Source: Candidatus Poribacteria bacterium (GTDB lineage: Bacteria; Poribacteria; WGA-4E; WGA-3G). From it: a DNA stretch of 64,000 bases. Within the stretch, counting starts at the first letter, position 1. Each line of letters starts with the position of its first letter. The position numbers and the translations under genes are program-made. The notes beneath the pieces are model-generated. The model searched no databases. It saw only the letters and a program-made list of their open reading frames with translations, and was not told the DNA's origin. Below, one piece after another: positions 6,308-34,121 of this stretch. The DNA is taken from positions 5,056,001 to 5,120,000 of the forward strand of contig OZ243938.1 of NCBI GenBank assembly GCA_965214095.1, read 5' to 3'.

Positions 6308-6354
6308 GTCAATAACTTCAAGTAAAAACCACACGCGTGTTTCACCAAAAGCAA

Positions 6355-6384
6355 TTGACAAGTACAACCGTGAAGATGTATAAT
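6355..6384 (+). promoter_or_regulatory. sigma70 promoter
   Basis: TTGACA-18 bp-TATAAT upstream of AGGAGG RBS and ATG 6412. Confidence 0.6.
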
Positions 6385-6411
6385 ATCAACAAGGCAATGA
6401 GGAGGACACCA

Positions 6412-6624
6412 ATGCTCAAAATCAACCCGCAATATCTTGTTGATGACAAAGGCGAAAAAACCGCTGCGTCCCTGACAATCAAAGAATTCCAACTGATCAT
6501 GCAGCGTCTTGAAGATTTAGAAGATATTTCAGAGATGAATGCTGCAGTCGAAACCGAAACCAAGCAGAACTTATGGAATATGCCGAGACACAACTTTGAA
6601 AGTTATGTGCCTCGCGCAAGTTGA
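6412..6624 (+). CDS. Small antitoxin-like protein, probably truncated or chimeric
   Basis: 'INPQYLVDDKGEKTAASLTIKEF...LEDLEDI' resembles small TA antitoxins; no toxin follows; C-terminus looks divergent. Confidence 0.5.
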   Translation: MLKINPQYLVDDKGEKTAASLTIKEFQLIMQRLEDLEDISEMNAAVETETKQNLWNMPRHNFESYVPRAS

Positions 6625-6687
6625 ATTGGGATAAGATGGACGAGGCGGAGCATGAAACTTTTGTTAATTACCTCATCCATGAGGATC

Positions 6688-7016
6688 TTCAGGCACCCAA
6701 GCCTAAAGGCATGGGATTGTGTTAATCTTCTGCCAGGCTTGATGTTCTTCGGTCTTGGCTCGTAACTTTACCTGTATGCCACCGAGGGGTCCCAGCGACC
6801 CACGATACAGAACCTCAGACACTTCCGACTTTGGAAGTTGTTCAAGCGAACTATCGTCTTCGAGTTACTTGGACACGGATATAATCAACGTGCCCCGATA
6901 TGCAAGACACTTCCGACTTGCTTGGGCATATAATAACAGACTTGACGTTTTCTGTCAAGCAAAATATAGGAACAGGCATTCCTCCCACACCTAAAGAAGT
7001 GGGCTTCCTGCCTGAA
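6688..7016 (-). mobile_element. Non-autonomous IS200/IS605-type mini-element (no tnpA/tnpB)
   Basis: Left end CAGGCA-GGAAG-CCCACTTCTTTAGGTGTGGG-AGGAA-TGCCTG; right hairpin CCCATGCCTTTAGGCTTGGG; left end homologous to the element at 26170. Confidence 0.7.
6930..6958 (-). promoter_or_regulatory. Internal sigma70 promoter of the mini-element
   Basis: TTGACA-17 bp-TATTAT; same position as the promoter in the 26170 element. Confidence 0.65.
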
Positions 7017-7040
7017 ACGTTGGTGAGTGAGAGATATATT

Positions 7041-7391
7041 ATGGAAAAGCAGAACCCTGTGGAACTTGAAAATATGTTTGACTTTATAAATCCAACGGCA
7101 ATCCGAATAAAAGGGACACGCGTCGGTATCGAAATTGTCATTGAGCAATTTCTTAAAGGGGCAGACCCAAGGGAAATTCAACGGCTCTATCCGAATCTGA
7201 CGTTGGGGCAGATTTATGTTACGATTACCTATTATCTGTTCAATAAGGAGAAAATTGATGCCTATATTGCAAAGGGCATCAAACAAGCTGAGGCTGCTTA
7301 TGAGGAACAACTAAAAAACCCGTCTCCTGGTGTCAAACGCCTCATGAAAATTAAAGCGGAACTTGAAGCACAAGGACATTATTCAGCGTAA
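7041..7391 (+). CDS. DUF433-family antitoxin
   Basis: 'IRIKGTRVGIEIVI...GADPREI...YPNLTLGQIY...YY'; ATG 7041 preferred because the ORF from 6900 runs through the mini-element. Confidence 0.85.
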   Translation: MEKQNPVELENMFDFINPTAIRIKGTRVGIEIVIEQFLKGADPREIQRLYPNLTLGQIYVTITYYLFNKEKIDAYIAKGIKQAEAAYEEQLKNPSPGVKRLMKIKAELEAQGHYSA

Positions 7392-7393
7392 TA

Positions 7394-7762
7394 ATGAATA
7401 AATACCAAATTCGCTTTCTGCTTGATGAAAACACCTCGCATGTTATCCAAGATGGACTCAAGCGAAAACAACCAGAAGTTGAGGTTCGGGTCATTGGAAG
7501 TGAAGGTGTACCACCACTCAGCACAAAAGATGAGGATATTCTTGAATTTCTGGAACGTGAGGGATACATCCTCGTCTCATCAAACCGAAGTACAATGCCG
7601 GTACATTTGCGTGAACATCTTCAAAAAGGCAGACATATTCCCGGTATTTTACTATTACGTCCTCGTGCCTCTTACCAGCAAATTATTGATACGCTTGAAT
7701 TGATATGTCTAGCAAGTGTGCTAGAAGATTTCCGAGATCAGATAACATATATTCCGTACTGA
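7394..7762 (+). CDS. DUF5615/PIN-like toxin (VapC45-like)
   Basis: 'IRFLLDEN...DEDILEF..REGYILVSSN...HIPGILL'; coupled to DUF433. Confidence 0.85.
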   Translation: MNKYQIRFLLDENTSHVIQDGLKRKQPEVEVRVIGSEGVPPLSTKDEDILEFLEREGYILVSSNRSTMPVHLREHLQKGRHIPGILLLRPRASYQQIIDTLELICLASVLEDFRDQITYIPY

Positions 7763-18312: not shown

Positions 18313-18642
18313 CTAAACAGCAACCACCCGCTGCTGTCCTTCTCTATTCTCTGAAGGAATAATCCGGATCTCAATATCGCGATTCAACTGATTAAGAAAC
18401 CTCATCAATTGCTCAACGTTGTAGTCAGAAAGTTTAGCGGCTTTAAGGCGAGAAACTTCAGTGTTTTTAATGCCAAGGAGTTTCGCAGCCTCGACCTGAG
18501 TGAGTTTTCGTTCCTTCAGAATTCGGAAAATCTCAGCTCCCAACTGAGCTTTTAGCAGTTCTTTCTCCGAGACCTCATCAGAAAAACCCAAATCCTTGAA
18601 GATATTCCCGCTGCCTTCTTCAACTTTAATGTTACTGCTCAT
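18313..18642 (-). CDS. higA: HigA-like XRE HTH antitoxin
   Basis: 'EEGSGNIFKDLG...LTQVEAAKLLGI' pattern; overlaps toxin stop. Confidence 0.85.
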   Translation of the reverse strand: MSSNIKVEEGSGNIFKDLGFSDEVSEKELLKAQLGAEIFRILKERKLTQVEAAKLLGIKNTEVSRLKAAKLSDYNVEQLMRFLNQLNRDIEIRIIPSENREGQQRVVAV

Positions 18643-19001
18643 AATTCTTTCTCCATCTCCTTAGCTCGTCTTAATCTTCGTTTAATCAAGTCAATATCCT
18701 TCTTTGGGGTTCTAATTCCACGTTTTGATTTCTTTTGAAAACAGTGCAGTACATACATGCTTCGACCAATTTTAACCGAGTAAACGACTCGGTAAGTATC
18801 CGTAGCGTAGGTATCGACAAGTTCAAACACTCCAGATTCTATACCCTTCATGGGTTTTGCCGATGGCGGGGTCTCGCCAATTTGTACACGATACAAAGCG
18901 TGTCCAATATCCTTACGCACCTGCTCCGGGAAAGCCTGTAACCTTTCTTTTGAATCACCAACCCACTGAACGTTTCTGGGGGTTGTTATCTCATGTTCCA
19001 T
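18639..19001 (-). CDS. higB: HigB/RelE-ParE family toxin (Gp49-like)
   Basis: 'YRVVY...YVLHCFQKKSKRGIRTP'; toxin-first order. Confidence 0.88.
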   Translation of the reverse strand: MEHEITTPRNVQWVGDSKERLQAFPEQVRKDIGHALYRVQIGETPPSAKPMKGIESGVFELVDTYATDTYRVVYSVKIGRSMYVLHCFQKKSKRGIRTPKKDIDLIKRRLRRAKEMEKEL

Positions 19002-21786: not shown

Positions 21787-23145
21787 CTAATTTCTCACTT
21801 CTCCTTCCGTAACTCTGCGTTGTCCACTGCCCTGTTGTGGTACGGGTTCAATCGTCGGTGCATCTTCTCCTGCTTCAACCATTCTACGTATCAATCTTTC
21901 ACGCATTGCCTCCGATACTGTTTCATGTGAACGCAATCCGATAAGATTTCGTAACTCGTACGGATCGGCTTGCAGGTCATAGAGGTATTGTTCAACATAT
22001 ACATCAGAACCACCACCACTACCACTTCCTTTAGGTGCATCTACGCAGTATTTCCATCGTTGTGTTCGCACCGACCGTCCGATTTGTGCTTCACTAATTT
22101 GGACAAACACCTCCTCTTGCCAATCCTCAGTCTCACCACGTGTAAGTGGAAGAATGGATCTTCCTTGCATCTCATCAGGAACTTCTAATCCTGCTGCATC
22201 CAGCAGTGTCGGGGGAAGGTCTACAAGACTTACAAGTTGTTGTATCTGTCCACCTCCTGTGAAATCTGCACCGTGAAATGCAGTCGGAACGCGTATAGAA
22301 CTTTCGTGACATGAACGTTTATATTCACTATTGCGAGTCTTGAAATGGCACCCGTGGTCTGAAGTGAACAGAATAATTGTATTATCTAAGAGATCAAGGC
22401 TTTTCAACGCATCCAATAGTCTTCCGAGTGCTTCATCAAGCCTTTTCACCATGCCATAGTAGCCACCTAAATGCTGGTGTGTTGATCCACCCAGCGCGGC
22501 AAGGTCAGGTGGTATCCATTTCCCCGTGTATCTTTCTCTATATCCATCTGGCGGTGGGTAATCGTCAAGATGGTTTTGGTGATGTGGTTCAATATAGGAT
22601 GTAAATAGATAGAAAGGATCGTCTTTGTTCTGGTCCACATACCTTATCACAGCATCGGTTAACGCATCTACACGGTAACCGGGTAAGTCAACAGGTTCAC
22701 CGTCATTATCAAATAGTCTTGTTTGGTATGCATCAGAAGTCATTTCCAAGACATTGGAGGCTAACCAATAATCGTATCCACCACGATTTTCTTGTGGAAC
22801 TGCACCAGTGCTACCTGTATGGAGGTGCCACTTGCCTATGTATCCAGTATTGTAGCCTGCATCTCCGAAGTGATGTGCGAGTGTTTTTAGGTCTGGCGAT
22901 AGTGGAATTCCGTTTCGGTGACATCCAGTTGTGGTCGCGTATAACCCTGTCTGCAAACATGATCGGGCAGGTCCACAGACGGGTTGGCATGTAAAGGATC
23001 GGCGGACATGTGTGCCTTGTTGTGCCATTCGGTCAAAGTTCGGCATCAAGTCAAGCGGATTACCGTGCAATCCTGATGTGTCCCACCGTTGTTGGTCAGT
23101 GAAAAAGACAATGACATTCGGTTGATTTTTGTCGGTTTGTGGCAT
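21787..23145 (-). CDS. Sulfatase
   Basis: TDQQR, CGPAR FGly motif, GKWHL, TSDHG. Confidence 0.9.
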   Translation of the reverse strand: MPQTDKNQPNVIVFFTDQQRWDTSGLHGNPLDLMPNFDRMAQQGTHVRRSFTCQPVCGPARSCLQTGLYATTTGCHRNGIPLSPDLKTLAHHFGDAGYNTGYIGKWHLHTGSTGAVPQENRGGYDYWLASNVLEMTSDAYQTRLFDNDGEPVDLPGYRVDALTDAVIRYVDQNKDDPFYLFTSYIEPHHQNHLDDYPPPDGYRERYTGKWIPPDLAALGGSTHQHLGGYYGMVKRLDEALGRLLDALKSLDLLDNTIILFTSDHGCHFKTRNSEYKRSCHESSIRVPTAFHGADFTGGGQIQQLVSLVDLPPTLLDAAGLEVPDEMQGRSILPLTRGETEDWQEEVFVQISEAQIGRSVRTQRWKYCVDAPKGSGSGGGSDVYVEQYLYDLQADPYELRNLIGLRSHETVSEAMRERLIRRMVEAGEDAPTIEPVPQQGSGQRRVTEGEVRN

Positions 23146-23297: not shown

Positions 23298-23957
23298 ATG
23301 AAAAACCTTTTGTTTGATTATCCCAGAAAAGACACTATAATTCAGATAGGTGATAGACAAATCAAACTCACGATTGTTGATGATCCAGATCGATTCTTGG
23401 ATACATTGAGTCGTGAGGATTGTGATGGGAGACTGTATCTACCGTACTGGACATACCTCTGGGAATCTTCTATAGGACTGGCACGTCACGCATCTGAGTT
23501 GGGTAATACAATTGCCGGACAACATATCCTTGAGATCGGTTGTGGTTTTGGACTTGCAGGAATAGTTGCCAGCCAAGTGGGAGCAGAGGTGATTTTTTCA
23601 GATTTTGAATATGATGCTCTTCTATTTGCACAACACAATGCACAGCAAAATGGTATTCGTTCTGTAGATTATGTTCAGGTGGATTGGAATACGCCGTGCT
23701 TTCAATGTCAATTTGATGTCATACTTGCATCTGATGTGATATATGAGGAACAGAATTGGCACCCCATAGTTCAATTACTAAAGAACTATCTAAAACCTGA
23801 TGGCATTGCTATTTTTTCTGAACCGAATCGCAAAAACGCAGGTGGATTTTTCAAAGATATTCGTAAAAACGGATTTACCTTTGAAAAATTCACTTGCTTT
23901 GTCACGTTAGACAATAAGGAAAGACAGGTTAACCTATACACAATTCAAAGGAATTAG
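23298..23957 (+). CDS. Class I SAM methyltransferase (METTL21/Methyltransf_16-like)
   Basis: 'PYWTYLWESSIGLA', 'LEIGCGFGL', 'DVILASDVIYE'. Confidence 0.85.
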   Translation: MKNLLFDYPRKDTIIQIGDRQIKLTIVDDPDRFLDTLSREDCDGRLYLPYWTYLWESSIGLARHASELGNTIAGQHILEIGCGFGLAGIVASQVGAEVIFSDFEYDALLFAQHNAQQNGIRSVDYVQVDWNTPCFQCQFDVILASDVIYEEQNWHPIVQLLKNYLKPDGIAIFSEPNRKNAGGFFKDIRKNGFTFEKFTCFVTLDNKERQVNLYTIQRN

Positions 23958-26161
23958 TCAGAATTCTCATCCTCAGGTTGTTTTGCTGGATGAATTTCAT
24001 AAGTGGTTCCCTTGTAAGAAACAATCACATGTTTTCCTATTGAAAGATATTGTGAGATATCAGGTTCTTTCTTTAGCAGATCAAAATATGCATCGGTACC
24101 AAATTCAATCTTCTTGGTCTTTGTCTCAGATTTATATGTGGTATCAACCCAAACACCATCTTTAAGATGGAAGGTTTTATTTTTCACCTGCTTAATTGTA
24201 ATTGCCGTTTCTGCTAACTGCTCACCTTTCTGGAGTTTTTGTAACTCTATACTTTCTAGAACCACCATTTCTCTTGCGCTTGGTGCAGTTACAGGTTGTA
24301 CCAAATCAACATTAACTCTCGATTCACTGACCTTTGGAGCATGGGTACTAACAGATCGTGCCATTTTTGCATAAAGATCTGATCTCCCTCTTTGTGAGCG
24401 ACTTAAAACTGGATTCTGTTTCTGTTCTTCTGTTACAAGAAATGACGTGTAAGGCGTCATGATCCCGTACTTTTCGCTGAGTCGCACAATTTCCTCTTCC
24501 AATTCCTTATTTTCTCCGTTTAGCCTAACTTCGTCAACAAGATATGCAACCTTACGTTGTGCCCACAACCTTGGGAGAAATTGGTGATCGGACTCATTCT
24601 TTGGGAACTTTGCATTATTGGAGAATTCCTTTCTTTCTCCGTTGATGTCTCCATGCAAAATCAATTCAGATTTCCCGCTGCCTACATATCTGCCAAGTAC
24701 AGTCAACTGGGAACCGCGAAATAGATGTGGTAACTTCCGCGGATAGAGATTTTTTGTTTTTATGTTCTCTATTTCCAAATCCAAATTGACGAGAATAGGT
24801 TCGCTCACCTTTGTGTAGAAAGATGAAACAACGACCTCTAAATCTTCTTGCGGTTTGACATACTGACGTGTGCCACCGTTTTGTTCAGCCATTTTGTCAA
24901 GTAGATTGACGTTTACATCGTATCCGACACCGAAAACGAATATACGCGATTTATCCCCATTTCTTCCAGAGACATTCTTGAGAATTTGCGTGGCATCTGT
25001 TACACCGACAGTTGCTTCTCCATCAGTGAGAAAGACTACGATGCGCGGTCGTTTTGGGTCTGGTGTGTCGGATATAGCAGCAAGTAGTGCGTCATTGATA
25101 TTTGTGCCGCCAGTCCCTGTAATATCATCAATAAACTCAATTGCATTTTTGCGTTCCTTTTTGACAGAAACTAATTCTTTAGAAAACGGTTCAACATCTG
25201 TATTGAAAAGGATGAGGTTAAATCGGTCTCCATCGTTTAGATTTTCTACACAAAAACGGAGTGCCTTTTTCGCTTGCTCTATTTTAGGTCCTTTCATGCT
25301 TCCAGAACGGTCAAGAATAAAGATAAAGTCTTTTTCAATTATCTTTTTCTTATCAATCTCATATTTTGGAGAGATAAGGAGCATAAAAAAGCCATCTTCA
25401 TCTGGATCATCGCGATGGGTTATTAGGTCAATCCCGAAATCTTTGTCGGATAGGGAATAGTAGCAGGCAAAATCTCGTACAACATTAACATTATTTCCCT
25501 CATAACTGATTGTCGCACGATGATCATCTTTGCGATTAACTGCAACTTCATGTGAGGGGGAATAGATTGTCTTGAGTTCATGCTTGCTCTTTAGGTCAAT
25601 TGAAACGGAGAGACTACCAACAGGAAAATTCGTGAATTTGTCGGTTTTTAGTGGATATGTATATCTTGCTAATGCCGAATCTACACCTATAACCTGAGAG
25701 TATTCCAATTGGATACGTCTTTCTCCGTTTGGAGGAATTGGGAACACTCTTGCCTGAAATGCACGAGTGCCGACATACTCCAACAGTGCGGGGTCTTGCA
25801 TGGAACGGACAATCCCTTCATAGATACTCTTTGCTTTTGCTTTCGCGAGTAGTTCTGCTTTTACAGGTTGTCCATCTATGTATAGCACAAAATTTGAAAT
25901 GGCAACTTCATCTTGTAATGGAAAGAGATATGTGCCTTCAAGTTGCATGTTGTTTGGATTAGCGAATACCTGATCAATTTTCGTTGTTGCGAGCTGGTTG
26001 TCAATAGAAACGTTCACATGGTGTTTTTCAATTCTTAGGTTTTGGATTTGCGGTGCACGTCGTCCAGTCGTCCTGATTATTATGCCTTGTGCCTCAGCAA
26101 ATTGGACTACTCCCGCGAGGAGTAGTATTAATATGGTCGTGAGGAAATTTAATTTTCTCAT
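23954..26161 (-). CDS. Secreted VIT + vWA domain protein
   Basis: Signal peptide; VIT 'TKIDQVFANPN..LEGTYLFP'; MIDAS DRSGS, TDG; 'YGIMTPYTSFL'. Confidence 0.88.
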   Translation of the reverse strand: MRKLNFLTTILILLLAGVVQFAEAQGIIIRTTGRRAPQIQNLRIEKHHVNVSIDNQLATTKIDQVFANPNNMQLEGTYLFPLQDEVAISNFVLYIDGQPVKAELLAKAKAKSIYEGIVRSMQDPALLEYVGTRAFQARVFPIPPNGERRIQLEYSQVIGVDSALARYTYPLKTDKFTNFPVGSLSVSIDLKSKHELKTIYSPSHEVAVNRKDDHRATISYEGNNVNVVRDFACYYSLSDKDFGIDLITHRDDPDEDGFFMLLISPKYEIDKKKIIEKDFIFILDRSGSMKGPKIEQAKKALRFCVENLNDGDRFNLILFNTDVEPFSKELVSVKKERKNAIEFIDDITGTGGTNINDALLAAISDTPDPKRPRIVVFLTDGEATVGVTDATQILKNVSGRNGDKSRIFVFGVGYDVNVNLLDKMAEQNGGTRQYVKPQEDLEVVVSSFYTKVSEPILVNLDLEIENIKTKNLYPRKLPHLFRGSQLTVLGRYVGSGKSELILHGDINGERKEFSNNAKFPKNESDHQFLPRLWAQRKVAYLVDEVRLNGENKELEEEIVRLSEKYGIMTPYTSFLVTEEQKQNPVLSRSQRGRSDLYAKMARSVSTHAPKVSESRVNVDLVQPVTAPSAREMVVLESIELQKLQKGEQLAETAITIKQVKNKTFHLKDGVWVDTTYKSETKTKKIEFGTDAYFDLLKKEPDISQYLSIGKHVIVSYKGTTYEIHPAKQPEDENSD

Positions 26162-26225
26162 CTAATCTTCGGGCAGGAGACCCAATCCTTTAGGTTTGGG
26201 AGGAATGCCCGCTCCTATGTTTTTC

Positions 26226-26254
26226 TTGACAATAAATGTCAAACTTGCTAAAAT
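26226..26254 (+). promoter_or_regulatory. Internal sigma70 promoter of the mini-element
   Basis: TTGACA-17 bp-TAAAAT. Confidence 0.7.
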
Positions 26255-26257
26255 ATA

Positions 26258-26566
26258 TTCGGAAAGTTCAATCACACGTAGTCGTGTGTGAGGTTGTCCG
26301 CAGTCTTTGGTGCTATATGTTGCGGAGCATAAAACTGAAAAACATATACGCTCTCACTACCATAGACACATAACAATTGAGTGGTAGGGACATGGGAGGT
26401 AAAAAACCCAGTCCGAAAACACACTCTCAAATAATAAGTTGCTCTTTTAGAGCAAGTGAGGTTGCTTAGAACCCACTGTGGAGACGAAATAAGACGGATG
26501 ATCCTTTTGGTGAAACGCAACGTCTATGAAGCACAAGTCCAACCCTTTAGGTTTGGGTACTATGAC
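26258..26566 (+). ncRNA. Putative structured non-coding RNA (multibranch domain plus omegaRNA-like 3' part)
   Basis: TTCGGA(26258)/TCCGAA(26412) closing stem around TCACACG/CGTGTG, TCCGCA/TGCGGA and CTACCA/TGGTAG stems; then TTGCTCT-TTT-AGAGCAA; directly after the promoter. Confidence 0.5.
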
Positions 26567-26627
26567 TGGAGACCTCCATCGTAATGTAAGGTTTGTCAGA
26601 AAGACTTTGTCAATTTTAAGAACAGAA

Positions 26628-28955
26628 TTAACTTGTCTGCATCGCTTCTAAATCCATCAAACGACGTGCCTTCCGTACAAGCTTGAACAATTCTTTTTCC
26701 TGCTCTTCACTTTCGGAATTCTTAGACTGTAGTTGAGGTAGAATGCCTTTGAGAATTCGCTGCACTGCACCTAAACTACCATCCTTTGCCCAATAACTTT
26801 CGCGTAGGATTTCAGCGAATTGTGCGACTGAGGCAGCAACCTGAAAATCCGGTGTAGTATCTTCAAATGAATCTTTCAGGTCTTCAACGCTGATTTTTTC
26901 ATTGACTTCCGTCACCTCTGCTGTGTCAGGATCTTCATGCCGAATAAAGACAGTGGCAAGTTTCTCTTTATCCACATTCTTGCAGAGTTTGACTTCATAG
27001 AGTGCGGTAACACTGTGTCCCGAACCGATTTCACCCGCATCTGCTTCATCGTTACGGAAATCTTCGTGTTCCATCTGACGGTTCTCGTACCCTAACAATC
27101 GGAACCGACTGACTGTATCCTCGTTGAATTCCACCTGAATTTTCGCATCCTTTGCAATAACCTGAAGCGTGCCTGTCAGATTTTGCACAAAGATTCGTTT
27201 CGCTTCTCTGAGGCTGTCAACGTAGGCATAATTTCCGTTGCCTTTCTTGGCAAGTTCTTCCATTAGGACATCGTTGAAATTGCCCATGCCGAACCCGACT
27301 GTAGTGAGGTAAATATCATCTTGATCCACATAATCACGGATTTCTTTGAGTAGCATAGCGGGATCTGTTACCCCTTGGTTTGCCACGCCATCTGAGCATA
27401 AGATAACACGATTGATACAACCTTTTTCCGCATTCTTACTGGCAAGTTCATATCCTTTGTGTATCCCGTCTTCAACATTGGTTACACCTTCAGGACATAG
27501 AGCATCAATTGCATTCAAAATATGTTTTCGGTTCACTGCACTTGTATGTGGCAGAACAACCCGTGCATCTGTGCCGTAGACAACAATGCCGATCTTATCA
27601 TTCGGACCAAGTTGCTCTACTAAGAGACGTAACGCTTTCTTCACAAGACCTAATCGATTTTCCATACCCATTGAACCGGATACATCTATGACAAATGTTA
27701 GATTTGCATCCTTTCGGTCAGTATCTTCTATGATTTTTCCTTGAATACCGATACGGACTAATTGGAGTCTTTTACCGTTTCCAAATTTTGAGGGTGCCCC
27801 TTCAATGTGAACGGCAAATGCATCTTCTGTTGGCGGTGTGTAGTTGTAATCAAACGCATTGATAAATTCCTCAACTCTGACAGACTCTGGTTGTGGGAGA
27901 TTGCCATCGTGGAGAAAACGACGCATGACTGCGTAAGATGCAGAATCTGTGTCCATAGCAAAGGTAGAAAACTTGTCATCTTCTGTGTCAATGAAAGGAT
28001 TGGTGCCATGTCCTTTGAAGAATACATCGTGATATGCAGTTCCGTTTGGTGGGGTTAATCCCAATCTTGACACGGACTGTCTGCGTAACACAGATTGCTC
28101 CATGAGCCTTTCAGTACCTCTCACATTCAGAGGTATAGACCTTGATAGTCGCTGTTCCATTAGCTCTGGAGAAGAATTCGCCTTAACGAGAGAATCCATT
28201 GCAACACCAACACGTCCGCTGCGGAATTCTAGTTCAGATACTTCTGACAATCCAAAATCTTCTTCAAATGAGAGGAGTTCTGCAGCTGTACGTGGACGTT
28301 CAACCAAGGAATATGAACATACAAAGTTTTTGTCTAACTGGACATCGTTGCTTTGGTAGGTCAGTTTCGCAAGCCCTTCAGATTCTTGGTCAATCTTGAC
28401 AGCGTGTGAAGGGGAATTGACAGTTTTTATCCCAATTCCATTATCTATAACTATGGACATCTCAAAATTACCAACAGATTGGTTGCTTTTTAATGGATGC
28501 GTGTAGGTGATATTTTCATCAGTAAAATTTAGACGTTCATCATACCTTATCTGAACACTACACGCGCCTCTAGCAGGAATCTTTAACACCTTCGTCTGTA
28601 AGTGTGAAGATGTAATCGACTCTAAAATGTCAGCATCTGAAGTCTGGAAGGCATCCCCATATATCTCTTTTAATTTTTTCTTATTTGCCAGTTTAATAGG
28701 AATTACCTTTTTATCAATACGGACTTCATATCCCTTGTTTCTTTCCTGTTTAGGTTGTGGAATAATGAACACACCCTCAACTGGCGAATTATTTGGATTT
28801 CTGAAAACGACTTCAACATCCGTCTGAGTAATTGCGTTTTGAATTCGGACATTCAAAAGGTAGTGTTCAATAAGCAGCTTTTCAAACTTGCGGGTTTCAT
28901 CTGGACGTTGAAGAAATAAAGTTTGTGCTAATGCACGAAGTTCTGATTTTTTCAT
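26628..28955 (-). CDS. Chimeric VIT-like + YfbK-type vWA protein
   Basis: N-half similar to the VIT region of 23954..26161; C-half similar to 29365..31050 (DVSGS MIDAS, IAKDAKIQVEFN, DAGEIGSGH). Confidence 0.85.
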   Translation of the reverse strand: MKKSELRALAQTLFLQRPDETRKFEKLLIEHYLLNVRIQNAITQTDVEVVFRNPNNSPVEGVFIIPQPKQERNKGYEVRIDKKVIPIKLANKKKLKEIYGDAFQTSDADILESITSSHLQTKVLKIPARGACSVQIRYDERLNFTDENITYTHPLKSNQSVGNFEMSIVIDNGIGIKTVNSPSHAVKIDQESEGLAKLTYQSNDVQLDKNFVCSYSLVERPRTAAELLSFEEDFGLSEVSELEFRSGRVGVAMDSLVKANSSPELMEQRLSRSIPLNVRGTERLMEQSVLRRQSVSRLGLTPPNGTAYHDVFFKGHGTNPFIDTEDDKFSTFAMDTDSASYAVMRRFLHDGNLPQPESVRVEEFINAFDYNYTPPTEDAFAVHIEGAPSKFGNGKRLQLVRIGIQGKIIEDTDRKDANLTFVIDVSGSMGMENRLGLVKKALRLLVEQLGPNDKIGIVVYGTDARVVLPHTSAVNRKHILNAIDALCPEGVTNVEDGIHKGYELASKNAEKGCINRVILCSDGVANQGVTDPAMLLKEIRDYVDQDDIYLTTVGFGMGNFNDVLMEELAKKGNGNYAYVDSLREAKRIFVQNLTGTLQVIAKDAKIQVEFNEDTVSRFRLLGYENRQMEHEDFRNDEADAGEIGSGHSVTALYEVKLCKNVDKEKLATVFIRHEDPDTAEVTEVNEKISVEDLKDSFEDTTPDFQVAASVAQFAEILRESYWAKDGSLGAVQRILKGILPQLQSKNSESEEQEKELFKLVRKARRLMDLEAMQTS

Positions 28956-29096
28956 CGTGATCTCCTTTATTGTATTTTTGGGTTTGTGATTTGTGTGACT
29001 TAGTTGTAAATGGAAGAGTTGTTTTGCATTTAGTTGGAATATATCTTAAACGCAATATGGGAAGAGAAAAGGTATCTCAACTCTACAATTACGCTA

Positions 29097-29121
29097 AGAC
29101 GTTTTAGTGGCAAAAAGGTTT
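29097..29121 (-). promoter_or_regulatory. Possible ECF-sigma promoter
   Basis: Minus strand AAAC-16 bp-CGTCT upstream of 28955. Confidence 0.35.
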
Positions 29122-29158
29122 AATATATTTGGAAGTAAATCATGGTATCAGACAGAAC

Positions 29159-29185
29159 ATAGGGCGGGCACAAGGTCCGCCCTAT
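29159..29185. repeat. REP-like palindrome / possible terminator
   Basis: ATAGGGCGG-GCACAAGGT-CCGCCCTAT. Confidence 0.55.
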
Positions 29186-29211
29186 AATCTACAAGGAACT
29201 AAGCAGAAAGA

Positions 29212-31050
29212 TTAACCCTCTTCCTGTTCTTTCAACTGACGTGCCTTTTGCACAAGCTCAAGCAACTCCTCTTTCCGCTCTTCTTGCTGAGGTGTTTTTG
29301 ACTCAATCTCCTGAAGAACGCCTTCAATTGTCTCTTGAACAGTAGTTAAAGAACCTTTTTTTGCTCAAAAACTTCCCCGAAGGATTTCAGCGAACTCCGC
29401 AATTGCACCGACAAGTTGAAACTCAGCAGATGCATCTTGATATGAACCTTTCAATTGTTCTGAGGAGATAGTTTCGCTAACCTCTGTAACCTTTTGTGTG
29501 TCGGGGTTTTCATGCCGAATAAAGACAGTTGCAAGTTTGCCAATCGCATCTTCATGAAGTTTAATCTCATAGAGTGCGGTTACGCTATGTCCAGATCCAA
29601 CTTCCCCTGCGTCTACATCGTCTTTGCGGAAATCTTCATGTGCAAGTGCACGATTTTCATATCCGAGTAGGCGGAAACGACTGACTGTGTCGGGGTTGAA
29701 CTCAACCTGTATCTTTGCATCTTTTGCGATGACTTGTAGTGTGCCAGTAAGATTCTCTACGAACACCCGTTTTGCTTCTTTAAAGGTGTCAACATAAGCA
29801 TAACTACCGTTCCCTTTATTGGCAAGTCGTTCCATCAAAACATCGTTGTAGTTACCCATGCCAAAGCCGACTGTAGTAAGCGTTACACCTTCCTTAACAT
29901 AGTTCCCTATTGTATTAAGGATAGCATCAGGACCTGTATTCCCAACGTTTGCTACACCATCTGAACAGAGGATTACACGGTTGATGCAATTTGACTTTGA
30001 GTTCTTTAGTGCAAGTTTGTATCCCATCCGAAGTCCTGCTTCCGCATTCGTTGACCCTTCTGAACGAAGTTGATTAATTGCCTCTGTGATATATTCACGG
30101 TTCTCTATACCAGTATGTTCAAGAACAACCCGTGAATCAGAACCATAAACTACGATCCCAACCTTATCAGTAGGACGAAGTTGATCAACAAGAAGTGTCA
30201 ATGCTCTTTTCACTAAACCTAACCGATTTTCCATGTTCATTGAACCAGAGACATCAACCACAAAGGTAAGTATAGCGTCTTTTCGGTCTGTATCTGGAAT
30301 GACGCGACCTTGAATACCGACACGGAGTAACTGAAGTCGTTTACCTTCTCCAAATTTAGAAGGAGCACCTTCTACGTGAACTGCAAATGCATCATCTTTG
30401 GGAGGCGTATAGTTGTAATCAAACGCATTAACAAATTCTTCAGCGCGGATAGCGTCTGTAGGCGGAAGGTTTCCATCTCGGAGATAACGACGCATTACAG
30501 AATATGAAGCAGTGTCTACATCCATCGCAAATGTAGAGAAGTTGTCATCTTCTGTATCAATGAAAGGGTTGGTGCCATGGTCTTTATAGAAAACATCTTG
30601 ATACGCTGCACCGTTTGGTGGGTTTAATTGCGGTGCTTGTAGTTGTAATGATGCTACTTGATTTGGTTGGCTCGCTGCACGCGAATAAGCCAATTGTGGT
30701 GTACTATTTACTACACTCAGGTTGGAGTGGATACTCGCTTTAGGCACAGGTACATTGGAAGCAATTGACTCTGACGATTTCATCATCCTTTGGGAAATTG
30801 GTTTAGATAGTCTTTTGGTGTGTGCAACCGTCTCTTGCACCGTAACATTCTGCGGACTAACTATACCTCTCACAATTGGTCTACTAAGTCTTGGTTTCGG
30901 TGGATCCGGTGGTTCAAACGTCTCTACTGCGACGACATCTTTGATTTGCTGGGTTTCTTGGTTATCTAAACGAAGGTTGATGATAGTTACAACGATGAGG
31001 AGGAGCGCAAGTGAAATAAAAAACGCCCCTGCGATTCTTTTGATACGCAT
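29212..31050 (-). CDS. YfbK-type vWA protein with N-terminal anchor; premature TGA at 29365-29367
   Basis: vWA/DUF3520-like; frame continues 50 codons past the TGA with homology to the paralog's C-terminus. Confidence 0.8.
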
Positions 31051-31210: not shown

Positions 31211-32740
31211 TCATCTTTCATTTTTTGTCTGAGTCTGTTGCAAGTATTCTGATATCTGTTTTGTTAATCTTTTTTCAATAGTCTTCATTTTCGGTACCCC
31301 CGCGAGATTGTTTGTTTCATTTGGGTCATCATGCACATTAAACAGCAGATAAGGGGTTCCTTCTCTATTTAATACCATTTTCCACTCTTGATTCAGCAGC
31401 ATAATTTCACGAGATATTTCGGAAATAGCGAATTCACGGTGTGGTGCTTCTGTGTCATCAAGAACAGGAGACAAGGACTTTCCGAACTGTCTATGCTTCA
31501 ACTCCCCTCCCGCCATTTCAACGAGTGTGGGTCCGATATCAATCCATTCAACAGGACTATCACAAGTGCGATCAGTGGTTGTGTCTTTTAAGGTATCAGG
31601 TGTACGCACAAGAAATGGAATTCGGACTGCTCCATTTAGGAGGTTACTTTTGTAAATCAACCCATAATCTCCGTTCATCTCACCATGGTCAGAACAGAAA
31701 ACGATGACAGTATTATCCAGTTCTCCGCGTTGCTCAATTGCACCCAAGATTTCGCCAATTTGATCATCAATGAGGGTAACATTTCCAGCATAATCCGCAC
31801 GCATTTTTGCCACATCACCTGCGTCAAATTTAGGACTTTTCTTCTTATTTTTCATAAGGTTGTCTAAACTTCCACGAGGACGGTTTTCTGCAGCTTGACG
31901 AGGTACGGGTTGTGGCATATCATCCGGATTATACATACTTGAATAAGGTTTTGGACAATCCCAAGGTTCGTGAGGTCCACCGAAACTCACCCAGCAAAAC
32001 CAAGGTTCTTTGCGGTTATAGTCTTGAAGATATTGCTTTGCTTGTTGTCCAACGTATACATCCGCATCATTTTCAAGTCCGAGTGGAGTGGGACGAACAA
32101 GATGAGGTCTCGTTTTGAAACGTTCCTGATAGTCCTCACGGTATGCTTTCCAGATACCTTTCTCTTCCCACATTTCTGTCATATAGGATAGGCATTTCAT
32201 ACTTGCTCGGGGACCACCAATCTCATTCACATCGTCTAATCCGTAAGCGTGCATCAAATGCTCACGTTTACGAAGATCACCAGTATTCGTGTGGAGATGT
32301 GTTTTACCGAATAGACTCGTGCGATATCCTGCCTCTCGGACAGCTTGCATCCATGTTGGAGTATCAGGTTTCATCTTATGCTTTTGGTTGTTCCAAACGC
32401 CGGTGTTGTGTGGATACAATCCTGTTGCTAAACTGAGGCGTGCAGGAACACAAACAGGTGATGTAGTAACACAATTAGTAAAACGTACACCCTCGTTTGC
32501 AATTCTGTCCATGTTTGGTGTTTGAACCCAATCACCACTGCACCCCATGGCATCCCACCGTTGCTGGTCTGTCATCAGAAGAAGGATGTTCGGTTTCTTG
32601 GACTCACTTGCAGGTTGTTGATCTGCCTTCGCTCCCTGTACACCAGTGTTTGTGGCAACAAGTGATATAGCACCTGCTCCTGCTACACCTAGATTCTTGA
32701 TGAACGTTCTGCGATTGATTTTATCGGATTTAGTCTTCAT
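31211..32740 (-). CDS. Tat-exported sulfatase
   Basis: NRRTFIK Tat motif; CVPAR; GKTHL; SDHG. Confidence 0.9.
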   Translation of the reverse strand: MKTKSDKINRRTFIKNLGVAGAGAISLVATNTGVQGAKADQQPASESKKPNILLLMTDQQRWDAMGCSGDWVQTPNMDRIANEGVRFTNCVTTSPVCVPARLSLATGLYPHNTGVWNNQKHKMKPDTPTWMQAVREAGYRTSLFGKTHLHTNTGDLRKREHLMHAYGLDDVNEIGGPRASMKCLSYMTEMWEEKGIWKAYREDYQERFKTRPHLVRPTPLGLENDADVYVGQQAKQYLQDYNRKEPWFCWVSFGGPHEPWDCPKPYSSMYNPDDMPQPVPRQAAENRPRGSLDNLMKNKKKSPKFDAGDVAKMRADYAGNVTLIDDQIGEILGAIEQRGELDNTVIVFCSDHGEMNGDYGLIYKSNLLNGAVRIPFLVRTPDTLKDTTTDRTCDSPVEWIDIGPTLVEMAGGELKHRQFGKSLSPVLDDTEAPHREFAISEISREIMLLNQEWKMVLNREGTPYLLFNVHDDPNETNNLAGVPKMKTIEKRLTKQISEYLQQTQTKNER

Positions 32741-32744
32741 AGGA

Positions 32745-34121
32745 TTATTTTTTGGTTTGTGTGTGAAATAGGTGTTCTAAAATTTGCAGCCTTAGTTCTG
32801 TTTCTAACTCTTTCATTTCGGGTTGTCCAGCAAGGTTATTTATTTCATCTGGGTCATCTTGCACATTAAAGAGAAGATAAGGTATACTATCACCGTTTAG
32901 CGCAATCTTCCATTCCTTATTGAGCAGCATGATTTCACCCGATATTTCAGAGATCGCAAACTCACGGTGCGTTGCTTCGGTGTCAGCAATAGCGGGACAT
33001 AACGACTTGCCATACTGCCGATGTTTCAATTCACCGTCAGCCATTTCAACAAATGTTGGACCGATATCAATCCATTCAACAGGATTGTCGTTGATTATCC
33101 CTTCTGTGCCATTTTTTACTGTTTCGGGAGTTCGGACAAGTAGAGGGATACGCACTGATCCATTGAGGAAGTTACCTTTGTATATCAGTCCGTAATCTCC
33201 GTTCATTTCACCGTGGTCTGAAGTGTGAATGATGACGGTATTATCAAGTTCACCCCATGCTTCAATTGCTTCAAGTATTTCACCAATCTGATCGTCTATG
33301 AGTGTTATATTACCAGCATAGTCTGCACGTAACCTTTGTTCCTCACCCTCTTCAAATTTGGGATTCATCCGATTCATCATATTGTCTAAATTACCACGAG
33401 GACGATCTCCAGCAGGTTGACGTGGAATAGGTGGTGGCATATCTTTTGGGTCATACATACTGGCATAAGGTTCGGGTGTATCCCACGGTTCATGAGGTCC
33501 ACCGAAACTTACCCAGCAGCACCACGGTTCTTGTCGGTTGTAATTCTGTATATACTTCTTTGATTGTTGACCGACGTAAACATCAGCATAGTTTTCAAGA
33601 CCAAGTGTTGAAGGACGAACTATGTAGGGTTTTGTGCTGAATCTTTCTTTATAATCCTCACGGTAACCTTGCCAAAGTCCTTTCTCCTCCCACATCTCTG
33701 TCATGTGAGACAGAACTCGACTACTTGCTCGTGGTCCGCCTATTTCATCAACATCATCTAAACCATACGATTTCATTAAATCTTCTCTGTCACGTAAATC
33801 TCCGTTGTGCGGATGAAGGTGTGTTTTTCCGAAAAGACTGGTGCGGTAGCCTGCATCACGTACCGTCTGCATCCAAGTTGGAGTATCAGCAGACATCGAA
33901 TGATGCATGTTATTCCAAACACCCGTATTGTGCGGATATAAACCCGTTGCTAAACTGAGACGTGTAGGGATACAGACCGGAGATGTGGTCACGCAGTTAG
34001 TAAAACGGACACCTTCATTTGCAATTCTATCTAAATTAGGTGTTTGCACCCAATCACCACTGCAACCCATTGCATCCCATCGTTGTTGGTCTGTCATGAG
34101 GAGAAGTATATTTGGTTTCAT
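32745..34121 (-). CDS. Cytoplasmic sulfatase (close paralog of neighbour)
   Basis: CIPTR; no signal peptide; long identical blocks with 31211..32740. Confidence 0.9.
   Translation of the reverse strand: MKPNILLLMTDQQRWDAMGCSGDWVQTPNLDRIANEGVRFTNCVTTSPVCIPTRLSLATGLYPHNTGVWNNMHHSMSADTPTWMQTVRDAGYRTSLFGKTHLHPHNGDLRDREDLMKSYGLDDVDEIGGPRASSRVLSHMTEMWEEKGLWQGYREDYKERFSTKPYIVRPSTLGLENYADVYVGQQSKKYIQNYNRQEPWCCWVSFGGPHEPWDTPEPYASMYDPKDMPPPIPRQPAGDRPRGNLDNMMNRMNPKFEEGEEQRLRADYAGNITLIDDQIGEILEAIEAWGELDNTVIIHTSDHGEMNGDYGLIYKGNFLNGSVRIPLLVRTPETVKNGTEGIINDNPVEWIDIGPTFVEMADGELKHRQYGKSLCPAIADTEATHREFAISEISGEIMLLNKEWKIALNGDSIPYLLFNVQDDPDEINNLAGQPEMKELETELRLQILEHLFHTQTKK

Follow-up and report, generated by a model that had tools for sequence, protein, structure and literature searches.

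What is a 405-bp insert that holds no protein gene doing directly in front of the start codon of a bacterial gene? The question is raised by a 64,000-nt stretch of Candidatus Poribacteria DNA (assembly GCA_965214095.1, contig OZ243938.1, positions 5,056,001 to 5,120,000 of the forward strand), which as a whole is called the window here and whose own numbering is used throughout. The insert, W1, is an element of the IS200/IS605 family without an open reading frame (ORF), it lies on the plus strand at 26162-26566, and it takes up part of the 466-bp gap between two minus-strand genes, 23954-26161 and 26628-28955, both for proteins of the VIT/vWA type. Very probably it is a non-autonomous, protein-less miniature derivative, or mini, of a Poribacteria element of the tnpB-only type, comparable to what are known as palindrome-associated transposable elements (PATEs).

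With what does W1 share its ends? One scan of reference genomes with the pattern TTTAGGNNTGGGAGGAATGCC gave 34 loci; three are chance matches to half of the pattern and 31 carry the full left-end hairpin, 28 of them labelled Poribacteria, two ‘uncultured bacterium’ and one Woesearchaeota. Loci of classes B and C have a plus-strand ORF of 373-434 aa after the left end and a second hairpin 1.3-1.5 kb further on, and in all seven of these ORFs that were tested Pfam finds OrfB_IS605 and Cas12f1-like_TNB. The related TnpBs keep DFG...E...DRD motifs, which we take to be those of RuvC, and one of them aligns over its whole length with the solved ISDra2 TnpB structures (8bf8, 8exa, 8h1j; E 2e-35). At class A loci the ORF is on the minus strand, has RRXRR only (both of the two tested) and ends inside the left-end hairpin. 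Two further loci are themselves ORF-less minis: L006, of 435 bp, whose right-hand ~120 nt share 75-88% identity with the RRXRR type on its right-end side, and L030:1659-2047, of 389 bp and from another genome, which is 68% identical to W1 over the whole length (BLASTN). As the right side of L006 is RRXRR-like and those of W1 and L030 are tnpB-like, RNA-only derivatives exist for both nuclease types. To judge by these sequences, the same left end is common to TnpB elements, IsrB-like elements and RNA-only minis within one IS200/IS605-family group. An initial annotation, made from the letters of the window, had proposed an ORF-less mini of IS200/IS605 type, and the like ends of 31 loci with TnpB or RRXRR cargo, together with the lack of any conserved ORF, bear that out.

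Where does W1 begin and end? Its termini and their immediate surroundings are as follows.

26158-26161, plus strand: target site, the TAM-like (transposon-associated motif) TCAT directly left of W1, of which CAT, 26159-26161, is the minus-strand start codon.
26162-26212, plus strand: left end, a nested imperfect hairpin, 100% identical to locus L001 over 58 nt and 90-98% identical to other loci (92% to the L030 mini for the hairpin).
26539-26566, plus strand: right end, a hairpin (26539-26557) and the terminal TACTATGAC (26558-26566), the element finishing after ...TGAC.
26567-26586, plus strand: guide-equivalent flank, the displaced vWA leader, in which CCTCC (26573-26577) is the reverse complement of GGAGG.

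The outer stem of the left end pairs CGGGCA (26170-26175) with TGCCCG (26206-26211) and encloses an inner hairpin, CCCAATCC-TTTA-GGTTTGGG, at 26181-26200 with TTTA as its loop, so that the nested hairpin is present as first described. The right-end hairpin is nearly identical to the inner one and on the same strand; in the window the 19-mer hairpin pattern has two exact and two three-mismatch matches, 0.02 being expected. Among loci, hairpin stems keep one mismatch or bulge and the right-end stems covary, i.e., CCAATCC/GGTTTGG, CCCTACC/GGTAGTGG, CCCTGCC/GGCAGTGG and CCAATGC/GCTTTGG. Six full-length class-B copies in different flanks have ...GGGTGCTATGAC in common and part company right after it; the 3′ terminus of W1 reads ...GGGTACTATGAC and stops at 26566, and the match to a covariance model, considered below, likewise ends there. 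The right boundary first assigned therefore stands. The left one, 26170, does not, as the bases CTAATCTT are part of the left end and TCAT precedes them in almost all copies, which places the boundary at 26162. In each of the 33 rows examined CAT or CAC is found 5′ of the left end, mostly as (T/C)TCAT. The flanks of W1, TTCTCAT and TGGAGAC, are not repeats, i.e., there is no target-site duplication. The first 83 nt, promoter included, are 90-94% identical to class-B left ends (BLASTN); a comparison of the 405 bp with plasmid and phage collections gave no match.

What lies between the ends? Four plus-strand features are distinguished, and the identities given are to the L030 mini.

26225-26254, plus strand: predicted sigma-70-type promoter, with -35 TTGACA at 26226-26231, a 17-nt spacer, TG at 26246-26247 and -10 TAAAAT at 26249-26254; 69% identity.
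26261-26377, plus strand: variable leader of the predicted transcript, with local hairpins, not conserved; 42% identity.
26378-26459, plus strand: 5′ half of an omegaRNA-like scaffold, pair probabilities 0.67-1.0; 68% identity.
26460-26538, plus strand: 3′ half of that scaffold, with homology to the final 33 nt of tnpB and the 3′ flank in full-length elements; 69% identity.

The scaffold ties W1 to tnpB. By BLASTN class-B 3′ ends match the last ~111-121 nt of W1 at 79% identity, from 33 nt ahead of the tnpB stop codon onwards, and full-length relatives have, in their tnpB 3′ end and right end, homology to the last ~110-190 nt. In a MAFFT alignment the ~190 nt of scaffold correspond collinearly to the final 190 nt of tnpB elements, the three-tier hairpin of W1 (GAGTG/GGGA/ATGGG...CCCA/TCC/CACTC, 26379-26426) being placed opposite tnpB zinc-ribbon codons, which suggests collinearity and is not significant alone. 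A covariance model, R1, was built (alignment A4) from seven tnpB-linked 3′ ends with W1 left out. Its one strong match in the window is 26419-26566 on the plus strand (53.4 bits, E 2.9e-13), the others being just hairpins, and the right end is thus omegaRNA-like and tnpB-style as the initial annotation had it. Applied to 32 sources, R1 recovered W1, 13 tnpB-linked ends at 178-224 bits, the mini of L030 at 78.9 bits and, of L006, the right-end hairpin; class-C tnpB elements were not recovered, nor was a second mini of the window, W2, described later. The consensus structure has 21 pairs, with 97.6% of cells paired compared to 90.7% in shuffles and 30-48% when slid. Compensatory changes, counted on an unfitted MAFFT alignment of eight distinct sequences, affect five of the 21 pairs, and none of 500 shuffles matches the covariation score. 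Within the 5′ half, the three-tier hairpin of L030 has CAAT/ATTG in place of TGGG/CCCA in W1. The extra hairpin proposed from the start, TTGCTCT-TTT-AGAGCAA at 26439-26455, has pair probabilities of 0.8-1.0 and one G.U change between W1 and L030. Read on the minus strand it is TTGCTCT-AAA-AGAGCAA followed by CTTATTATTT, and scores as terminator-like; if working, it would block read-through from upstream into the cut-off downstream vWA gene.

The predicted promoter, TTGACA-17-TAAAAT as first pointed out, agrees with the consensus at 11 of 12 positions and has the TG extension besides. Its -35 is one half of a palindrome, CTTGACA-N5-TGTCAA (26225-26242), and transcription is predicted to start near 26261. 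Relatives that carry tnpB have, at the equivalent place, an equivalent -35, a 17-nt spacer of varying sequence and a TAnnnT -10, and this supports the promoter of W1 being the one that presumably drives tnpB in full-length relatives. That a guide RNA is driven directly by a retained tnpB promoter follows naturally from internal deletion. Another thought, that the left end supplies an outward promoter or portable Shine-Dalgarno sequence by which the adjoining gene stays expressed, was dropped: W1 has no promoter-like site on the minus strand, and AGGAG stands beside the hairpin at gene-start copies and other copies alike.

The leader behaves otherwise than the scaffold. An extra 5′ RNA domain that is a functional unit had been envisaged there, and it is not borne out by an identity to L030 of 42% for 26261-26377, where the scaffold has 68-69% and the left-end hairpin 92%. 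The helix thought to close a multibranch region of ~160 nt, TTCGGA (26258-26263) with TCCGAA (26412-26417), also falls away: its six pairs have a probability of 0.0, forcing it costs 9.5 kcal/mol (-71.9 vs -81.4), and L030 keeps only TCGG/CCGA. Could the leader be a diverged 5′ untranslated region (5′UTR) of tnpB? A 5′UTR model from four sequences, R2, had no match in the window under default filters, and with filters off on 551 nt its best was 5.9 bits (E 0.36). Local alignments of the leader with six tnpB 5′ regions were within the shuffle range except for that with L009 (3 of 200 shuffles as high). A diverged 5′UTR is not supported by the R2 scores, and the alignments are mostly at shuffle level.

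Is there nevertheless some coding sequence? The mechanically called ORFs of W1, 45 aa on the plus and 82 aa on the minus strand, have no Pfam match and are not kept in the homologous L030 mini. When 14 TnpB and IsrB proteins were compared with four minis by tblastn nothing was below E 0.01, and the interior of W1 as decayed tnpB coding sequence, a possibility that would have undone the first proposal, was rejected; that W1 has no transposase or TnpB ORF accords with that proposal. The only recognisable coding pieces in the minis are a few C-terminal tnpB codons that overlap the scaffold and the peptide encoded by the left end, ..GHSSQT. Partners have to be looked for elsewhere. The same 14 queries gave just two spurious matches (E > 0.5) in the window. 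Of the cognate genes that were to be expected with like ends, tnpB was found (the seven tested, in other Poribacteria genomes), and tnpA was seen neither in the window nor in the loci of 4 kb. A TnpB and a TnpA acting on W1 in trans are assumed.

What would the RNA be guided to? The gene whose start adjoins W1, 23954-26161, encodes 735 aa with VIT and VWA domains in Pfam and an N-terminus that looks like a signal peptide. If 26162-26566 is deleted, ...ACGATGGAGGTCTCCA is joined to ATGAGAAAA on the minus strand and GGAGG comes to stand six bases before the ATG of that gene. The rejoined GGAGG-N6-ATG supports the boundaries of W1; it also shows, as far as the letters of the site can, an insertion that split the vWA gene from its ribosome-binding site. 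It equally supports the flank TGGAGACCTCCATCG..., the putative guide of the W1 RNA, being the former leader of the vWA gene, and the initial suggestion that the guide is the leader region of this gene is upheld by the reverse complement of the flank, GGAGG-N6, rejoining ATG at 26161. As long as W1 is inserted, what stands before the flank is the right end, ...ATGAC, and not TCAT, and because of this no TAM-adjacent target is present until excision forms one. No second guide target was found in the window, the only other 16-mer match having three mismatches, which is chance level.

Is a position next to a start codon peculiar to W1? In 21 of 33 left-end copies the adjoining CAT or CAC is the first codon of an opposite-strand ORF of at least 70 aa with a typical N-terminus (19 of 31 sites after two orthologous pairs are merged). 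A Shine-Dalgarno-like tetramer is present on the far flank, 7-17 nt before the rejoined ATG, in 11 of the 16 such copies with a known right end and in 1 of 11 others, which indicates that the insertions sit between ribosome-binding site and start codon. Special targeting of start codons is not needed, as the target motif and the loss of gene-disrupting insertions explain the observed share; within the window 14 TTCAT sites are at gene starts, 10 are intergenic and 227 are inside genes.

How might W1 persist? Its promoter would yield an RNA of ~300 nt, plus read-through into the flank, comprising leader, scaffold and flank, with a 3′ part that would be a TnpB-type omegaRNA having the flank as guide. 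A TnpB encoded by a full-length relative at another place in the genome would associate in trans with this RNA and may trim away the non-conserved leader, TnpB being a protein that trims its own transcript into omegaRNA. A Y1 transposase, TnpA, would excise W1 and rejoin TCAT to TGGAGACC.... TnpB could cut this rejoined site and recombination with a sister copy would restore W1, i.e., retention or homing, a mechanism described for TnpB and IscB (PMC10055086; review PMC13565253).

Several points weigh against this account. Neither a TnpB, an IsrB nor a Y1 transposase gene is present within the 64 kb, and the promoter and the transcript are predictions. With 53 bits on R1, W1 is far under the 178-224 of tnpB-linked copies, due to the first hairpin of the model, which is coding in the relatives, being replaced in W1. 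The RNA of W1 as a whole folds no better than shuffles (z = -1.55, 7 of 100 as good), and when W1 is folded by itself the long-range helix of the family (TGTG...CACA, GAGACG/CGTCT) has a probability of only 0.01-0.04; the case for structure is made by comparison and not by thermodynamics. The eight sequences on which pairs were counted are also those that gave the consensus structure. Only two ORF-less copies of this RNA type are at hand, W1 and L030, from different genomes, and conservation of the 5′ half is a single comparison. Rfam 15, used at gathering score on the whole window and at E <=10 on 25900-26900, gave no match, a negative that is weak if the subtype has no model.

Some of these points would suit a dead relic, in which an internal deletion spared the ends, the promoter and some of the omegaRNA region, and the RNA is bound or used by no TnpB and persists merely through not having been removed. 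The low R1 score, the unconserved leader, the fold no better than that of shuffles and the want of partner genes in the window are all in its favour, as is a C.T mismatch in the right-end hairpin where most copies have T.T. However, both ends are intact, the left one without a difference from L001 over its 58 nt, the promoter is near-consensus, and the scaffolds of W1 and L030, though differing by ~32%, keep their helices with compensatory changes, which is not expected of neutral decay. A relic is on balance unlikely.

Much less probable again is that the structured region belongs to the host gene, as a minus-strand leader or regulatory RNA of 23954-26161 and not a mobile element. It is directly upstream of the ATG of that gene and on the minus strand has the terminator-like hairpin (26455-26439). 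Yet like ends flank tnpB or RRXRR genes beside unrelated genes in the 31 loci, the gene’s own Shine-Dalgarno is beyond the right end and is rejoined to ATG when W1 is removed, and a minus-strand promoter-like site was not found inside W1. As improbable is the RNA being the guide of a domesticated, nuclease-dead TnpB-like repressor (TldR-type, a link made in the initial annotation) that regulates vWA genes; in its favour is the guide-equivalent flank being the former vWA leader. The window has no TnpB-like gene, whereas TldR guides are encoded beside tldR (review PMC13565253); moreover the RNA ends at the transposon right end with the hairpins intact, no TAM precedes the flank while W1 is inserted, and the related TnpBs have kept their motifs. 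An IscB/IsrB-type omegaRNA cassette read inwards from the right end on the minus strand is scarcely credible, for although RRXRR (IsrB-like) elements have the left end of W1 and L006 is an ORF-less mini of that type, the right part of W1 matches the tnpB-linked model on the plus strand, BLASTN to the RRXRR-type right side is confined to 29-37 nt of the right-end hairpin, and neither HEARO nor any other Rfam family was matched in the searches of the window, with E up to 10 on 25900-26900.

W1 as a protein-less mini has to be set beside systems already known. In ISDra2 the TnpB-associated omegaRNA (reRNA) overlaps the tnpB 3′ end, ends at the right-end boundary and takes its guide from the flank, as in the relatives of W1. 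W1 differs in having no tnpB, and the target of its group, TCAT/TTCAT, is unlike that of ISDra2, TTGAT. Miniature inverted-repeat transposable elements are, as W1, short deletion derivatives that are not autonomous and have kept no more than the ends by which they can be mobilised in trans; unlike them W1 has hairpin ends of one strand, no terminal inverted repeats, no target duplication and a functional-looking RNA gene. The closest counterparts are in Geobacillus stearothermophilus, where ORF-less PATEs that encode omegaRNAs for use by TnpB in trans are reported by Meers et al. 2023 (PMC10055086), and the novelty that the initial annotation implied is thereby removed: elements of the W1 type are already known in kind and W1 adds a member. 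In common with those PATEs it has ends that are shared with coding elements of tnpB and iscB type (for W1, in other Poribacteria genomes), no protein gene, an omegaRNA region kept beside the right end, a presumed reliance in trans on TnpA to move it and on TnpB to use the RNA, and a TTCAT-type motif just before the left end, TTCAT being in Geobacillus the TAM of ISGst5 IscB (PMC10055086). It differs in phylum, candidate Poribacteria, the likeness being one of description, and in keeping next to its left end the tnpB promoter, which would drive the RNA directly. Sense-overlapping transcripts are reported at the 3′ end of IS1341-type tnpB genes by Gomes-Filho et al. 2015 (PMC4615843), and W1 is like those RNAs in being non-coding and at the 3′ end of tnpB-only elements, with the difference that its tnpB is gone and theirs are intact. 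A literature search found no paper combining ‘Poribacteria’ and ‘TnpB’.

The window has a second, diverged ORF-less mini.

6687-7022, minus strand: W2, with a left end and promoter of the W1 type and a different interior; its right boundary is uncertain.

The left end and promoter of W2 are ~85% like those of W1, and its right-end hairpin is at 6714-6696. R1 has no match to it beyond the hairpins, the interior is unrelated to that of W1, and a 14-nt repeat, AGTCGGAAGTGTCT, occurs twice. W2 was inserted after TCAC, 18 nt upstream of the start (7041) of a DUF433 gene. That gene, 7041-7391, goes with a DUF5615/PIN-like one, 7394-7762, and is among several small toxin-antitoxin-like genes by Pfam, which include a RelB-like gene, 6337-6624, and the pair formed by Gp49-like, 18639-19001, and HTH_37, 18313-18642. 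Around W1 there are three consecutive minus-strand VIT/vWA/YfbK_C genes, 23954-31050, beside three sulfatase genes (21787-23145, 31211-34121).

Some features of the relatives deserve record. Full-length tnpB relatives have a structured 5′UTR between the left-end promoter and ATG, absent from W1 by the R2 search of the window, and it is of two types.

L009:1854-1949(-), L027:2074-2171, L016:2080-2164, L015:1746-1839(-), L028:1830-1924(-), L003:413-507(-): copies of the first type of 5′UTR.

The first type, of ~90 nt, consists of a closing stem, a long hairpin and a small hairpin whose loop forms a pseudoknot with an internal loop; 15 of its 29 pairs, including all five of the pseudoknot, have compensatory changes and 0 of 500 shuffles reach the score. 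The second type (L008, L022, L011, L002) is a three-way junction with six of 30 pairs compensatory. Rfam gave no match to the 5′UTR structure at L009, L016 and L025. Possibly it controls tnpB translation. On eight related loci Rfam gave only a weak HEARO match (23 bits, E 0.59), which lies towards the right end in L001, and a chance viral match. RRXRR-only ORFs (IsrB-like, no HNH match) of 340-374 aa head towards the left end in L001, L007, L012, L014, L023 and L029 and finish inside its hairpin, their last codons, ..GHSSQT and stop, being encoded by the reverse complement of that hairpin with its TTTA loop. The left end of L011 is a perfect palindrome, GGGCATTCCTCCCAATCC-TTTA-GGTTTGGGAGGAATGCCC, its 5′ arm apparently converted so as to complement the 3′ arm. 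In L005 a DDE_Tnp_1 transposase gene (114-1319) follows the left end and the tnpB start (MRTYKYKIRNHSKNKK...) comes further on, which looks like an unrelated insertion sequence within an element that has a left end of the W1 type. L004 (contig CAYQKM010000012.1), the locus from a metagenome-assembled genome labelled Woesearchaeota, has the left-end hairpin with TTCAT before it and a 273-aa ORF, DNA methyltransferase-like on reading its sequence, that ends inside the hairpin (..RHSSQA); the presence of the hairpin under an archaeal label could be due to a binning error or to transfer.

Are such minis more than leftovers of longer elements? Their target, (T)TCAT, reads ATGA(A) on the opposite strand, and an insertion there would part a host gene’s Shine-Dalgarno from its start codon, as in 21 of the 33 left-end copies, the one at this vWA gene among them. 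It is conceivable, and rather doubtful, that the minis are selected ‘guide-only’ parasites of the full-length elements, which borrow TnpA and TnpB in trans to move and to be restored after excision, and act at gene starts as scarless, reversible off-switches of translation. If so, excision by TnpA would switch the host gene on again and homing by TnpB and omegaRNA would switch it off. For annotation, the vWA gene 23954-26161 is to be regarded as separated from its ribosome-binding site. W1 leaves the current picture of IS200/IS605 biology as it was. What W1 offers is a natural omegaRNA gene, cleanly bounded, parted from its nuclease and under the element’s own strong predicted promoter, in a little-studied, uncultured, sponge-associated phylum, and its family may be a source of compact guide scaffolds and a system in which to test the loading of TnpB in trans.

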